In this document: positions 45,298 through 52,008 of the stretch, one piece after another | How positions within the stretch are numbered: position 1 is the stretch's first letter | How the letters are laid out: each line of letters starts with the position of its first letter | Assembly: GCA_002069765.1 (NCBI GenBank) | Contig: MWBZ01000005.1 | Span: forward strand, 42,214 to 106,213 | DNA: 64,000 nucleotides | Reading direction: 5' to 3' | DNA from: a bacterium ADurb.Bin243 | GTDB taxonomy: Bacteria; Muiribacteriota; UBA9980 | Translations under genes and position numbers: made by a program | Notes under the pieces: model-generated | What the model was told of the DNA's origin: nothing | The model's input: only the letters and a program-made list of their open reading frames with translations | Database searches by the model: none

Positions 45298-46461
45298 TTA
45301 ATTTGAAATAAACGGGCTCGGGCCGTTATTTATATCGGGCTGCGCTTCTTCCATGAGGGTTTCGACGGTAGAACCCGCCGCCGCTTTTACTTCGGCGCTT
45401 TCAGCCGGCGGCGCGACGGTTGCGGGAGCGATTTTAATTTCATCCGTGGCGTCCGGCTTGATTGTCCGGCTATGGTCCTTTTTAATAGGCGCCGAACCGT
45501 CGTTGGTAATTTTTTTAATTTTCATGTTTTTGTCGTTGAACAAATCAATGCTTTTATCGATAAGGTTTATCTCTATCTTTTCGCCCGGCTTTAAATCGAT
45601 GCCGCCGACGGCCTCGAATTTAGCATCACGGGAGCGCATTTTTATTTTTCCGCTGATAAGTTTTATTGAAGAAGCGCTTTCACTGACCTCGACTTCGATC
45701 GTGGTTCCGGTTATTTCAACGCTAATTTTACCTATATCGACTATAAAAGGATTTGTATCGTCGAGCGCCGCTTTATTGAACGCCATCAAAGCCCGGCCCG
45801 ATAAAACGCCGATGCTGGATTCGTCTAGAATGGCCGTGGTAAGAGGTTGCAGCGTAACTCTGACTCGCTCCGACGAAAGGACGCAAACGCATCCGTCGCC
45901 GGTTTTTATAGCGTCGCCTTTTGAAACTGCTGAGGTTTCGCCCAGCTCTTGCATGACTCCGTTTTGAGTTATGAAAGCCTTTGCGTTTAATTTGATGACC
46001 GAGTATAATTTATTATCGTTATTAAAGATTTTTACGGTCTGGCTGTTATCGTTTCTGCCGTTCAAAACCGCGAGGCCTGAATAAATAAGGGCGGCGATTA
46101 AAAGAGCGGCCAGGGCCCCGGCAAGGCGGTTCGTCTTAAGCGCGTTTAATATTAACTCTATTACGGACGGCTGCGGGGCTGGTTGCACCTGTGTTCTACC
46201 GGTTTTGGCCGCGGGGCGTATTGCCTTTATTTTAGCGAGTATTTTAGCCTGTTCGTCCTGGATTTTAAAATCGATATTTTCTTCGCAGCCTTTAAGCCCG
46301 GCCAGCATATTGCGCGTTTTGGCCGCGGCGTTGAAATATGCGGCGCAGTCGGCGCAGGTTTTAATGTGAGCGCACAGCTGTTCGGATTGGCCGTTCGCTA
46401 TTCTTTCGAACTCGCCGCCGTCTTTATTTAAAAATTTTTCTAATCTGTCGCATTTTTTCAT
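45298..46461 (-). CDS. Anti-sigma factor: N-terminal zinc-finger (zf-HC2-like) domain, one TM helix, C-terminal FecR-like periplasmic domain.
   Basis: CAHIKTCADCAAYF. TM LAGALAALLIAALIYSGLAVL. C-terminal beta-rich domain with GDGCVCVLSSERVRVTLQP...VEITGTTIEVEV. Confidence 0.6.
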   Translation of the reverse strand: MKKCDRLEKFLNKDGGEFERIANGQSEQLCAHIKTCADCAAYFNAAAKTRNMLAGLKGCEENIDFKIQDEQAKILAKIKAIRPAAKTGRTQVQPAPQPSVIELILNALKTNRLAGALAALLIAALIYSGLAVLNGRNDNSQTVKIFNNDNKLYSVIKLNAKAFITQNGVMQELGETSAVSKGDAIKTGDGCVCVLSSERVRVTLQPLTTAILDESSIGVLSGRALMAFNKAALDDTNPFIVDIGKISVEITGTTIEVEVSESASSIKLISGKIKMRSRDAKFEAVGGIDLKPGEKIEINLIDKSIDLFNDKNMKIKKITNDGSAPIKKDHSRTIKPDATDEIKIAPATVAPPAESAEVKAAAGSTVETLMEEAQPDINNGPSPFISN

Positions 46462-46573
46462 AACGCATCACGCTTTTTAATATTTTTAATCGTTTTTTAC
46501 CCTCATAATTAACTACATGGACCGCGCTTAAATAGTTTGAAGATTATATAAAAAATATACCGGCTTTTACGGT

Positions 46574-47341
46574 TTACTGCGAAAGTCCCGTGCTGGTGCC
46601 CATATTGCTTCCTATTCTGATGCCGTTGGCCGTACTCGATGAATTAGGAAGGCTTCCCAGGTTTACCGTTATATTTCCGAAGTTAGTCATAATCATCGTA
46701 ACCGCCGGATTTATAGTGCTGATTTTCCAGGTGGGCAGCCAATATTTTTGCATATCATCGACCAGCTGGTTTTCGATATAGGTGGAATAAATATTTATCA
46801 TAACATCGAGCCGGGCGTTGGTAGAGTGAAGTATCTTCGTTTTTAAATAACGCGGTTTCTGTCCCGGAGCGCGCGTATTGGATAGGTGGTTGCCGGCCGC
46901 GTCGAGTATTTTTATTTCAAATTCGCTCAATTTATTAGCCCCGGTGAGTTTTCGCGTCCTCAGGCCGCTGAGCCCGTCGCTTTCGATGACCTGGAACTTT
47001 TTGATAAGACAGCCGTTTTCAAAGCAGTAAAGGACTTTTGAATATATTATGATTCCGTTTTCCGTGACGCCGTTGACTATATTCAAACTTAATGTTTTTG
47101 CGGCGGCGTCATATACCGCGAACGTATCGGGGTCGTTTTCAAATTCTATAAGCGTTCTGAGATCGCTTCTAAGGTTATAGATTATAAAAGCCATTTCCTG
47201 TATGGCTTCGAGATTTTTAGTTTCCAGCTCGTGATGTTTGTGGCTTCTGATTAAAAAAGTGTAAATCGCCGCCATTATGGATGTGGCGATAAGCGTTACC
47301 ACTATTATTTCCACCACGGTAAACCCGGATTTATTTTTCAT
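46574..47341 (-). CDS. Pseudopilin (GspJ/PilW-like) with a class III signal peptide, module A.
   Basis: MKNKSGFTVVEIIVVTLIATSIMAAIY has the prepilin G/F cleavage site and Glu at +5. Confidence 0.7.
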   Translation of the reverse strand: MKNKSGFTVVEIIVVTLIATSIMAAIYTFLIRSHKHHELETKNLEAIQEMAFIIYNLRSDLRTLIEFENDPDTFAVYDAAAKTLSLNIVNGVTENGIIIYSKVLYCFENGCLIKKFQVIESDGLSGLRTRKLTGANKLSEFEIKILDAAGNHLSNTRAPGQKPRYLKTKILHSTNARLDVMINIYSTYIENQLVDDMQKYWLPTWKISTINPAVTMIMTNFGNITVNLGSLPNSSSTANGIRIGSNMGTSTGLSQ

Positions 47342-47343
47342 AA

Positions 47344-50631: not shown

Positions 50632-50671
50632 TTATTAACCGGCTTTCGCGGTTAAAAATTTTGCGCGAATG

Positions 50672-51367
50672 TTATTTTCTTAACTTATCGAACGGATTGG
50701 CGTTCTGATAGTCTTCGAATTTTTGACCGGAATCCGGCCGGGGGGATATTGAAAGAACGTCGTAACCGGCTTCTACGCTGACGGGTTCCCCTATTTCTTT
50801 GTCTTTTTCGATAACCAGCAGCTGATTGTCTTTGACGTCGACGGTTTTACCGATGCCGTCCTGCTTGAATTCGACGCAGCCTTCTCTTACTTGTAAAAAC
50901 GCCTGCGCCGATTTTTCATCTACTTTTACGGCGAATGTAGTGCCTTTTATGCCCATGGTGCCTGCCGGAGTTTTTACCGTGAACGAAATCCTGCCGTCTT
51001 TTTTCTCCGGCTTGTAACTGATCCATGCCCCGCCCTTATTGATTCTGATATTGTTGATGCCGACCTGCATTTCTGCGTCCCTGGCGAGGCTGATTACGGC
51101 GCCTCCGTTCATTTTGATTTCGGCGGTGGAGCCGTTGTGCGATTTGAGCATATCGTTATTATTGAGCTTCATGCTCAATGCGTCGATCGGCGATAATACC
51201 GCGTAGCCCGAATCGCCGCCGGGATTATGCTCTATTTTAGACTCGAGCAGGCTGATTACGCCTACGCCGTCGGCGGCTAAGGCGGCTCCCGATACGCCGA
51301 TTATGCCGGCCGCTATTAATCCGGCGATTAAAGATAAGAACGGATTGCGTGAAATTTTCATAATCAT
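50672..51367 (-). CDS. Periplasmic FecR-domain protein (signal peptide/anchor, no cytoplasmic anti-sigma domain).
   Basis: MIMKISRNPFLSLIAGLIAAGIIGVSGAALA. FecR-like TAEIKMNGGAVISLARDAEMQV...GTMGIKGTTFAVKVDEKSAQAFLQVREGCVEF. Overlaps the sigma-factor gene by 4 nt. Confidence 0.6.
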   Translation of the reverse strand: MIMKISRNPFLSLIAGLIAAGIIGVSGAALAADGVGVISLLESKIEHNPGGDSGYAVLSPIDALSMKLNNNDMLKSHNGSTAEIKMNGGAVISLARDAEMQVGINNIRINKGGAWISYKPEKKDGRISFTVKTPAGTMGIKGTTFAVKVDEKSAQAFLQVREGCVEFKQDGIGKTVDVKDNQLLVIEKDKEIGEPVSVEAGYDVLSISPRPDSGQKFEDYQNANPFDKLRK

Positions 51368-52008
51368 TCACTTCCTTTATTGATTTTTTGACGATTGGCG
51401 GTTTCGGCGATTCGCGTCCTGCGTTCGGCCGTAAGCGCGAAAAGCTTCGTTATGATTCCTATCGCCCTGTTTATTCTGAATTTAGCCGTGCCTACAGGAA
51501 TATTCAAAATTTTTGATATTTCTTCGTATTTGAGGTCGTTGTAATATTTTAAGATTACCGTAACCCTGTAAATGGCTGGTAATAGACCTATGAGGTCTTT
51601 TAAAAGATTTTTTTCGAACTTTTCATTCATTTCTATCTCGGCTTTTTCGTCGATTAAAAATTTTTTTAGATCGTTAATGCTTCCGGCGCCCGCCTCGATA
51701 GCTTCGATATATAAGACTTTTACTCTGTCTTTACCGCGCTGCCTTAAAAAATCCATGCATACGTTGGAAGAAATTTTTAACAGCCAGTTTGAAAATTTAT
51801 ATTTTTTATCGTACGTTTCCCTGTATTTATATACCCTTACGAACGAGTCCTGCGTAAGGTCCTGGGCCGCGTCGGCGTCGCGGGTTATTCTGAGGCAGTT
51901 ATAATATACGAATTTATAATACAGCGATATCAAAGCGTTCGTTTTATCGTCTTCGCCGTTAAAAAATCCTTCTATTAATTGCTTTGTTTCCTGCGTTTCA
52001 ATAATCAT
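51364..52008 (-). CDS. ECF-type RNA polymerase sigma factor (sigma-70 regions 2 and 4).
   Basis: DLTQDSFVRVYKYRETY...FSNWLLKISSNVCMDFLRQ (region 2); YEEISKILNIPVGTAKFRINRA (region 4 HTH). Confidence 0.85.
   Translation of the reverse strand: MIIETQETKQLIEGFFNGEDDKTNALISLYYKFVYYNCLRITRDADAAQDLTQDSFVRVYKYRETYDKKYKFSNWLLKISSNVCMDFLRQRGKDRVKVLYIEAIEAGAGSINDLKKFLIDEKAEIEMNEKFEKNLLKDLIGLLPAIYRVTVILKYYNDLKYEEISKILNIPVGTAKFRINRAIGIITKLFALTAERRTRIAETANRQKINKGSE

Follow-up and report, generated by a model that had tools for sequence, protein, structure and literature searches.

A SigW-like ECF sigma factor and its predicted anti-sigma factor flank a pilus-tip gene module in a genome of Candidatus Wallbacteria

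ECF sigma/anti-sigma pairs are among the commonest signalling devices of bacteria, and their signals are known for few groups. To our knowledge, almost none of the pairs of candidate phyla has been characterised. The described systems closest to the locus analysed here are SigW/RsiW of Bacillus subtilis (ECF30; structure 5wuq), FecI/FecR/FecA together with FoxR and PupR, RpoE/RseA/RseB, and T4P minor-pilin/PilY1 priming clusters of the fimU-pilVWXY1 type. It has been observed for E. coli FecR that a soluble periplasmic fragment guards the membrane-anchored one, and that this protection lasts until the soluble fragment is taken away (PMC12036975). We analysed a stretch of 64 kb (the window) from a Candidatus Wallbacteria genome, in which a FecR-type sensor domain is found beside pilin genes.

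Layout of the cluster

The sigma gene (51364..52008) and the gene of a 387-aa protein, the predicted anti-sigma factor (45298..46461), are located at opposite ends of one pilus-tip gene module, and the anti-sigma gene is four genes and 4.9 kb away from the sigma gene within the window. A 231-aa secreted FecR-domain protein, which we call FecS (50672..51367), is encoded next to the sigma factor. These three ORFs are on the minus strand at the positions reported by the initial annotation, and all other features given below are on the minus strand as well unless noted. The module between them, module B, encodes a giant protein of 912 aa (47893..50631), a PilV-like prepilin of 172 aa (47344..47862; Pfam N_methyl 3.4e-5), which also matches TIGR02523 (PilV) at 9.9e-7, under the cutoff, and a PilW/ComGF-like prepilin of 255 aa (46574..47341; N_methyl 7e-4; processing motif G/FTVVE). 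Module A encodes a giant protein of 898 aa with an N-terminal hydrophobic helix (53364..56060), a PilV-like prepilin of 165 aa (52877..53374; N_methyl 9.7e-5; G/FTFLE) and a PilW/ComGF-like prepilin of 253 aa (52115..52876; N_methyl 1.6e-3). Thus all four small proteins carry the prepilin cleavage/methylation motif as modelled by Pfam N_methyl, two of them just under the curated cutoff; neither giant protein has a Pfam match. The giant proteins of modules A and B are 58% identical to each other and the PilW/ComGF-like proteins 54%, while the module A giant is 86% identical to its counterpart in the relative L007 and the module B giant 73-80% identical to its orthologues in four other lineages. 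Module A is an old paralogue of module B. It has no FecR-domain gene of its own.

The cluster begins with the gene of a 574-aa, secreted, helix-rich protein (56224..57948), which matches no Pfam or NCBIfam model and no known family; this gene is the conserved start of the cluster in five lineages. The protein ends in the tail NPFTSGSGN. Such an [NS]PF tail is common to the 574-aa protein, FecS (YQNANPFDKLRK) and the 387-aa protein (SPFISN), and occurs in only these three of the 52 ORFs in the window. The last gene, 36 nt downstream of the anti-sigma gene, encodes a 566-aa secreted protein (43562..45262). Its N-terminal part is thioredoxin-like (CxxC), its middle is of low complexity, and its C-terminal domain is zincin-like (HExxH). 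Its family matches in Pfam and NCBIfam are weak only, and the gene is kept at this place in L007, L010, L011 and L023. A bidirectional intrinsic terminator (43481..43509; 12-bp stem with 8 GC pairs, T-run) closes the cluster after the 566-aa gene, and no strong terminator was found between the cluster genes. In the gap that separates module A from the 574-aa gene, a hairpin (56107..56166; inverted repeat I5) is part of a fold at -36.2 kcal/mol (z -2.06), and hairpins of different sequence were seen by eye at the equivalent position in L007 and L008. It is possibly an attenuator or an RNA-stabilising element. FlgA and FlgI are encoded in the window, and FlgH/FlgI beside the cluster in L008, which indicates an outer membrane and therefore a periplasm.

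Sigma factor, anti-sigma factor and a common promoter-like motif

The sigma factor (214 aa) was confirmed to be of the ECF type. It contains Sigma70_r2 (3.6e-15) and Sigma70_r4_2 (3.1e-12) in Pfam and scores 81.8 bits with TIGR02937 (sigma70-ECF; cutoff 42.9), and regions 2 and 4 are the only ones present in about 200 aa, as in ECF (group 4) sigma-70 factors. The best NCBIfam match is NF007223 (SigW), at 117.4 bits under its cutoff of 209, followed by TIGR02948 at 105.4 bits under 243.1, and the best PDB match is SigW (5wuq, 7.7e-23). These scores indicate a SigW-like protein that is not an orthologue of SigW (ECF30). The best sigma-70-type site of the 15-kb region (11/12 positions) is a housekeeping-type promoter of the sigma gene, TTTACA-18-TATAAT with a TG extension (52018..52047). 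It ends 9 nt before the sigma ATG, which implies a leaderless or near-leaderless transcript; orthologous N-termini align at this Met, and TGATATAAT is kept at the promoter in L007, L008 and L011.

The 387-aa protein was described in the initial annotation as a zf-HC2 domain followed by a transmembrane helix and a FecR-like C-terminal domain. The last two parts are borne out, the FecR-like domain being a distant one: there is one hydrophobic helix (about residues 113-133), Pfam FecR matches at threshold (24.3 bits, cutoff 24), and hhalign of the periplasmic part with the secreted FecR family gives a probability of 95.5% (E 1.4e-8), so that the two are homologous. As for the first part, C4, H32, C36 and C39 are invariant in six orthologues and follow the ligand pattern of zinc-binding class I anti-sigma factors (ZAS), His-x3-Cys-x2-Cys preceded by a further Cys or His, within the first ~40 residues. 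Because the Pfam zf-HC2 model (PF13490) gave no match at E<=0.1, the zinc-finger call rests on this motif. For this protein, a profile search of the PDB yielded no anti-sigma domain, hhalign relates its family only weakly to RsiW (probability 18%, E 1.4e-3; the RsiW sequence was confirmed as that of 5wuq chain C), and the monomer structure model is unusable (pLDDT 35.5). As predicted from the gene linkage and the upstream motif given below, the protein is very probably the anti-sigma factor of this sigma factor.

The sigma and anti-sigma genes co-occur wherever the contig reaches, in the window, L007/L015, L008, L010 and L011. They are not adjacent in the window, as genes of ZAS anti-sigma factors that are co-transcribed with a sigma gene would be, and adjacency is seen only in L009 and the distant relatives L020 and L025. 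The separation is conserved across lineages and is therefore not an assembly accident. In L009, the gene of a 426-aa protein lies 27 nt downstream of an orthologous sigma gene (45% identical). The anti-sigma family is matched by residues 1-131 of this protein (E 6e-13) and the secreted FecR family by residues 199-370 (190 bits); here the N-terminal part of the anti-sigma factor is fused to a secreted-type FecR domain. L020 has a canonical sigma/zf-HC2 + FecR anti-sigma pair just downstream of such a module, past one opposite-strand gene, and its 363-aa anti-sigma protein, a distant relative, matches PF13490 at 3.3e-10.

Furthermore, CAAACY-N18-TAGT, a promoter-like motif of the ECF type, has exactly three matches in the 64 kb, against 0.06 expected by chance, and all of them are intergenic and on the coding strand, in front of the 574-aa gene and of the sigma and anti-sigma genes. 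These are CAAACC-N16-TGTAGT, which lies 32 nt before the 574-aa gene (57981..58008), the imperfect CAAACC-N16-CATAGT upstream of the sigma gene (52077..52104), where it would serve autoregulation, and CAAACT-N16-TGTAGT, which lies 50 nt before the anti-sigma gene (46512..46539). The first and third are at equivalent places in L007, L008, L010 and L011; the second is also found in L007, in relaxed form in L011 and L009, and was not found in L008. In the four other lineages the hexamers are conserved and the spacer varies. The consensus of SigW promoters is TGAAAC-N16-CGTA, which the motif resembles, and we infer that it is the putative promoter of this sigma factor. The initial annotation proposed a search for a -35/-10 motif before the sigma gene itself, the 574-aa gene and both giant genes; the first two have it, and it is absent upstream of either giant gene.

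FecS and the control of the sigma factor

The fecS gene overlaps the sigma gene by 4 nt at the sigma stop codon (ATGA), as had been noted before. An in-frame TGA directly precedes the fecS ATG and makes an N-terminal extension impossible, so an alternative upstream start with a sigma-binding segment is excluded. The protein had been described as a signal anchor plus a FecR domain. Its periplasmic FecR domain is clear (PF04773, 6.9e-11, 42.9 bits), but the anchor is not: the N-terminus MIMKISRNPFLSLIAGLIAAGIIGVSGAALA/ADG looks cleavable, in the manner of a Sec signal peptide. This stretch is hypervariable between orthologues, against an average conservation of 73% for the mature part, and has pLDDT < 50 in the structure model. 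Hence FecS most likely carries a cleavable signal peptide and no membrane anchor. It belongs to a wide family of short secreted proteins with a FecR domain, for which an exhaustive profile search gave 683 matches; the first 22 listed are 220-313 aa long, and the match begins within residues 1-37 in 21 of these 22. In all eight more distant loci that were inspected, the secreted FecR gene adjoins giant, PilV-like and PilW-like genes, and three gene orders occur. The flanks of seven of the eight yielded no sigma-factor gene (up to 10 kb per side, less at contig ends). Since no sigma or anti-sigma gene was detected beside most members, sigma control cannot be the general role of the family. These neighbourhoods point to a four-gene module in which a secreted FecR-domain protein accompanies a giant, PilX-like protein and two pilins, one PilV-like and one PilW-like. 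FecS is best read as a standard secreted component of this module and not as a truncated anti-sigma factor. The "split" anti-sigma factor of the initial annotation thus does not hold, as the 387-aa protein has all three parts and FecS belongs to the module.

We regard it as fairly probable that the genes form an autoregulated cluster in which the sigma factor is held by the 387-aa anti-sigma factor and the two bracket a module that includes FecS. Gene content, domain homologies, synteny, the L009 fusion and the distribution of the motif are observed; the binding of the sigma factor to the 387-aa protein, the assignment of the motif to this sigma factor and the nature of the signal are predicted. 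In the Candidatus Wallbacteria genome, the SigW-like sigma factor would be kept at the inner membrane by the 387-aa protein, to which it is predicted to bind and which would have its RsiW-like zinc-motif domain in the cytoplasm, one helix in the membrane and its FecR-like sensor domain in the periplasm. Basal sigma expression, probably leaderless, would start from the housekeeping-type promoter. Once free, the sigma factor would act on CAAACY-N16-TGTAGT promoters of three units, namely the 574-aa gene, the sigma gene with fecS and module B, and the anti-sigma gene with that of the 566-aa HExxH protein. Feedback would be positive through the sigma gene and negative through the anti-sigma gene. 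As for the signal, our best guess is that the periplasmic domain of the anti-sigma factor reports the state of the pilus module, sensed directly or through the homologous FecS, and that this domain is then removed by a FecR-like proteolytic cascade. The cluster is a plausible candidate for a link between pilus state and sigma activity.

A possible, if doubtful, alternative is that the system is functionally split: FecS would be an obligatory periplasmic partner that shields the FecR-like domain of the 387-aa protein from proteolysis, like RseB on RseA or the self-cleaved C-terminal FecR fragment on the membrane-anchored one, and the sigma factor would be freed when FecS is lost from it by pulling or titration, in which the pilus module might be the agent. 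The periplasmic domains of the two proteins are homologous, the L009 protein joins the anti-sigma N-terminus to a secreted-type FecR domain, the [NS]PF tail recurs, E. coli FecR provides a precedent in which a soluble fragment guards the anchored one (PMC12036975), and the 4-nt overlap with the sigma gene is present in the window, L007 and L010. The overlap is lost, however, in L008, L011 and L002, and the lack of detected sigma and anti-sigma genes beside most family members also speaks against an obligatory partnership. The coupling in three lineages and the L009 fusion suggest all the same that FecS is more than a bystander to sigma control.

One can also think of a pilus-coupled form of cell-surface signalling, although we hold this unlikely. 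FecR-fold proteins, one free in the periplasm and one on a zinc-motif anti-sigma factor, would monitor a pilus-tip module and not a TonB-dependent receptor; the force of assembly or retraction would strip off a protective partner or fragment, leading to anti-sigma proteolysis and a burst of module expression, and the [NS]PF tails would be docking peptides.

A further alternative, which we consider very unlikely, separates the two proteins: the sigma factor would be controlled otherwise, for example by transcription alone, and the 387-aa protein would act on a different sigma factor or have some function in the module other than regulation. The distance between the two genes, an anti-sigma domain recognised by motif only and the strong housekeeping-type promoter that the sigma gene owns would fit such a separation. 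The two genes nevertheless co-occur strictly in five lineages and have the upstream motif in common, a homologous N-terminus adjoins the orthologous sigma gene in L009, and a profile built from this sigma family detected no other sigma gene in the window. Finally, a cell-surface-signalling cascade that toggles expression between modules A and B, proposed in the initial annotation and suggested by the sigma gene between two paralogous modules in the window and L007/L015, is scarcely credible and not supported, as three of the five related lineages (L008, L010, L011) have only one module, although their sigma, FecR-protein and anti-sigma genes are the same, inverted repeats able to flank an invertible promoter were not found, the motif is absent before both giant genes, nothing distinguishes the two modules, and strong terminators between the genes are lacking.

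Comparison with known systems

At this locus a FecR-fold sensor is associated with a pilus-tip module instead of iron import, and a wider, undescribed four-gene module is defined, in which a giant protein and two pilin-like proteins are joined by a secreted FecR-domain protein. Full-text searches found no literature linking FecR proteins to minor pilins. Among characterised proteins, B. subtilis SigW is closest to the sigma factor, and the 387-aa protein, like RsiW, is single-pass with an N-terminal Cys...His-x3-Cys-x2-Cys of near-equal spacing (C4/H32/C36/C39 against C3/H30/C34/C37, which we take to be the zinc ligands of RsiW). The SigW promoter shares AAC at -35 and GTA at -10 with the cluster motif, and autoregulation, predicted here, is common to both. 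Unlike in SigW/RsiW, the sigma factor is far below the family cutoff (117 versus 209 bits), the anti-sigma gene is 5 kb downstream and not adjacent, the outer domain is FecR-like, the host has an outer membrane, and the putative targets are a pilin module and not envelope-stress genes.

In the case of FecI/FecR/FecA, FoxR and PupR, the Gly-Thr pair at which FecR cleaves itself (G181/T182) aligns with an invariant G142/T143 in the secreted family and G252/T253 in the anti-sigma family. However, a scan of the cluster genes and ten further proteins of the window found no TonB-dependent transducer, Pfam detected no C-terminal STN-type domain, the cytoplasmic domain is of the zinc-motif and not the FecR type, the sigma factor resembles SigW and not FecI, and FecS is a separate gene product with its own predicted signal peptide and not a cleavage fragment. 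As in RpoE/RseA/RseB, the sigma operon also encodes a soluble periplasmic protein, which could hypothetically bind the periplasmic domain of the anti-sigma factor, and the conserved C-terminal tails recall the peptide-sensing logic of DegS; yet there is no relation in sequence or fold to RseA or RseB, and the secreted FecR protein is mostly found in clusters without a detected sigma-factor gene.

T4P minor-pilin/PilY1 priming clusters also have prepilin N-termini on PilV-like and PilW/ComGF-like proteins beside a large protein with a PilX-like N-terminal helix, and occur as several paralogous clusters per genome, as in the related MAGs here. They differ in that the giant protein of our module has no PilY1 or other known domain, the conserved fourth member is a secreted FecR-domain protein, and putative control is by an ECF sigma factor and not by a two-component system. 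In summary, the sigma/anti-sigma cluster belongs to a known regulatory kind in a new form, and if the link to pilus state is true, FecR-type signalling would reach beyond TonB-dependent transport.

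Organization of the gene cluster

Eleven genes lie in a row on the minus strand between 43.5 and 58.0 kb. The first encodes a 574-aa protein (56224–57948), followed by module A (52115–56060), which encodes an 898-aa giant protein and pilin-like proteins of 165 and 253 aa. Next come the genes for the 214-aa ECF sigma factor (51364–52008), the 231-aa FecR-domain protein (50672–51367) and the 912-, 172- and 255-aa proteins of module B (46574–50631). The 387-aa protein (45298–46461) and the 566-aa protein (43562–45262) complete the series, and the sole strong terminator follows the 566-aa gene. 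Genes and domains are as described in the initial annotation, except for two corrections concerning a signal peptide and a Pfam zf-HC2 assignment. A protein attributed to a Candidatus Wallbacteria MAG matches the sigma protein with 100% identity. FlgA and FlgI are encoded in the window, which points to a cell envelope with an outer membrane and hence a periplasm. Flagellar P-ring genes (39197–42311; FlgA, FlgI and probably FlgH at 40499–41110) converge on the cluster, and the cluster has the same flagellar neighbourhood in the related locus L008.

A hairpin (56107–56166) lies 3' of the 574-aa gene. Hairpins of different sequence were seen by eye at the matching position in L008 and in L007, another related locus. 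Together with a strong ribosome-binding site, the hairpin suggests that no other product is expressed as highly as the 574-aa protein. At the other end, the 566-aa gene starts 36 nt after the 387-aa gene. Its product has a very conserved HExxH C-terminal domain and a thioredoxin-like CxxC N-terminal part, which is present in the window and L011 and absent in L007 and L010 (both L010 and L011 being related loci). Given the position of its gene just after the 387-aa gene, this product may act in the system as a periplasmic protease or a processing enzyme.

The sigma factor and its promoters

Of the Sigma70 regions, the sigma factor contains just 2 and 4, and its nearest characterised relative is SigW. 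Alignment of upstream regions across lineages revealed the motif TCAAACY-N16-TGTAGT. Exactly three copies of CAAACY-N18-TAGT occur in the window, where chance would give 0.06. Each of the three lies between genes, on the coding strand, and they precede the 574-aa, sigma and 387-aa genes. In four other lineages, the strict motif precedes both the 574-like gene and the anti-sigma gene. The sigma gene is preceded by the motif in L007 and by a relaxed form of it in L011 and L009. Conservation is confined to the hexamers and does not extend to the spacer, the pattern that a promoter should show. The SigW consensus has AAC at −35 and GTA at −10, and the motif resembles it. Two-mismatch matches at 36785 and 57581 were rejected, because they lie on the other strand and are no more than chance would give.

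It had been proposed that a signalling cascade toggles the two pilin modules, and a search for the motif upstream of the 574-aa, sigma and giant genes had been suggested. The motif is present upstream of the first two, but is missing upstream of both giant genes. An invertible promoter was also considered but is not supported, as inverted repeats suitable for such a switch were not found. Support for the toggle is thus absent.

In addition, the region's best housekeeping-type promoter, TTTACA-18-TATAAT plus a TG extension, belongs to the sigma gene and ends 9 nt before the ATG. The extended −10 promoter, TGATATAAT, is conserved in L007, L008 and L011, which share the same promoter-to-ATG layout, and the sigma N-termini align at the annotated Met. 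A Shine-Dalgarno sequence is absent before the ATG (52009–52047). The end of the promoter 9 nt before the ATG, its conservation and the Met alignment imply that the basal sigma transcript would be leaderless or near-leaderless.

Module history and the secreted FecR-domain protein

Sigma orthologues were traced to their own contigs to compare layouts. The lineage of L007 and L015 (sigma 75% identical) has the two-module layout of the window. L010, L008 and L011 (sigma 63–65% identical) have one module, in the order 574, sigma, FecR-only, giant, pilin, pilin and anti-sigma, followed by a 566-like gene in L010 and L011. The separation of sigma and anti-sigma genes is kept in five lineages, whereas the position of the sigma gene between two modules, as first described, is not conserved.

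Modules A and B share 71–77% DNA identity in repeated segments and 46–58% protein identity. A recent tandem duplication of the module is ruled out, because module A proteins share about 58% identity with each of the module B orthologues, versus 73–89% among the module B orthologues themselves. Therefore, module A is an old paralogue. It lacks its own FecR-domain gene. L010 has no module A and, by module B identities, is the closest relative of L007; hence L010 probably lost module A. The sigma gene of L010 lies 55 nt after the 574-like gene, and L010 seems to have lost both sigma-gene promoters together with module A.

The 231-aa gene overlaps the sigma stop codon (ATGA), and the FecR domain of its product is clear (Pfam 6.9e-11). 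An upstream alternative start, which the initial annotation had raised as a challenge to its own reading, is ruled out: a TGA lies directly upstream in frame, and therefore the protein cannot be longer. Its N-terminus, previously called a signal anchor, instead reads as a cleavable signal peptide ending in ALA|AD, and is hypervariable across the orthologues, in contrast to the strongly conserved mature part.

The 231-aa protein is best regarded as a component of the module. An exhaustive profile search revealed 683 relatives; the first 22 listed are 220–313 aa long, and in all but one of these the match starts within the first 37 residues. Secreted FecR relatives carry signal-peptide-like N-termini. 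We recovered the genomic context of eight more distant members (L013 and L016–L022), all of which adjoin giant, PilV-like and PilW-like genes, in three gene orders. No sigma-factor gene was detected at seven of these loci in the flanks fetched (up to 10 kb per side, shorter at contig ends, e.g., upstream in L013). A further module of giant, two pilin and FecR-domain genes was seen in L022 (1–2954) and L014, from the same MAG (JPNA_metabat.86; close relative), and no sigma gene was detected within this fetched module locus. Other MAGs have two or three such modules. The presence of several modules per MAG indicates a multi-copy module family.

The 387-aa protein and a proposed signalling pathway

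The FecR-only protein and the 387-aa protein had been regarded as a split anti-sigma arrangement. A more fitting description is a complete anti-sigma factor encoded at the distal end of a module whose own FecR-fold protein is secreted. Four lines of sequence evidence, namely SigW/RsiW likeness, L009, L020 and the shared motif, point the same way, to the 387-aa protein as the putative anti-sigma factor. It has one hydrophobic helix and invariant C4/H32/C36/C39. The zinc-motif residues of the proposed zf-HC2 domain are thus present, but the Pfam zf-HC2 model is not matched. The ligand spacing is almost the same as that of RsiW, whose zinc ligands in the published structure are C3/H30/C34/C37. 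The RsiW sequence was confirmed as 5wuq chain C. The Pfam FecR match of the 387-aa protein sits at threshold, and a profile-profile match with the secreted FecR family (probability 95.5%, E 1.4e-8) confirms the predicted FecR domain. An AlphaFold model of the 387-aa protein from a 3-sequence alignment had a mean pLDDT of 35.5 and was set aside. The profile of the anti-sigma N-terminus gave only chance zinc-finger matches among PDB sequences, a word-indexed homologue search with the 387-aa protein found only two near-identical proteins, and scanning metagenomes with the anti-sigma family contributed just two further pairs, both distant and canonical.

In L009 (sigma 45% identical), a 426-aa protein is encoded immediately downstream of sigma. 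Its residues 1–131 match the anti-sigma family (E 6e-13, with a profile built without it), and residues 199–370 match the secreted FecR family (190 bits). This natural fusion connects sigma with both the zinc-motif domain and a FecR domain of the secreted type. The fusion is unlikely to be the ancestral state, because short, secreted proteins predominate in the family, with the fusion ranked 23rd. In L020, a canonical sigma/zf-HC2 + FecR pair lies just downstream of a module, with one opposite-strand gene between.

The sequences show four elements: an ECF sigma factor; a complete membrane protein whose N-terminus bears the zinc motif and whose outer domain is FecR-like; a module protein that is secreted and contains a FecR domain; and a promoter-like motif in common. 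We propose that the 387-aa protein would sequester sigma. Freed sigma would transcribe the 574-aa gene, its own gene together with the FecR-domain protein and module B, and the anti-sigma gene together with the 566-aa protein. The simplest guess is that the anti-sigma sensor domain senses the state of the pilus module, because this domain is homologous to the dedicated module protein and is replaced by that protein's domain in one lineage.

E. coli FecR self-cleaves at the Gly-Thr pair G181/T182 (PMC12036975). G142/T143 of the 231-aa protein (codons 50941–50946) and G252/T253 of the 387-aa protein (codons 45703–45708) are invariant in their own families, and both align with this pair. Both proteins may therefore self-cleave, and the alignment makes a FecR-like proteolytic cascade possible. 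Separately, an [NS]PF motif occurs within the last 14 residues of 3 of the 52 window ORFs, the 574-aa (codons 56224–56250), 231-aa (50672–50710) and 387-aa (45298–45330) proteins. Every orthologue of the FecR-domain and anti-sigma proteins retains the tail; 574-like proteins have SPF in L010 and GVF in L008 and L011. It is also found in a 483-aa protein of L009, and distant FecR-domain homologues have NPFE, NPW or DPF. The tail may be a peptide for docking or processing that these proteins share.

Full-text literature searches yielded no publication that connects FecR proteins with minor pilins and nothing relevant on ECF sigma factors with pilins, and pilin or pilus contexts go unmentioned in the main text of the paper that reclassified ECF sigma factors. 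The proteins belong neither to the SigW equivalog nor to Pfam zf-HC2, nor do they match a FecI/FecR/FecA system: the cluster genes and ten other scanned proteins of the window include no TonB-dependent transducer or FecI-like sigma factor, and a FecR C-terminal domain was not detected. In summary, the system is like SigW/RsiW on the cytoplasmic side and resembles FecR-type signalling on the periplasmic side.
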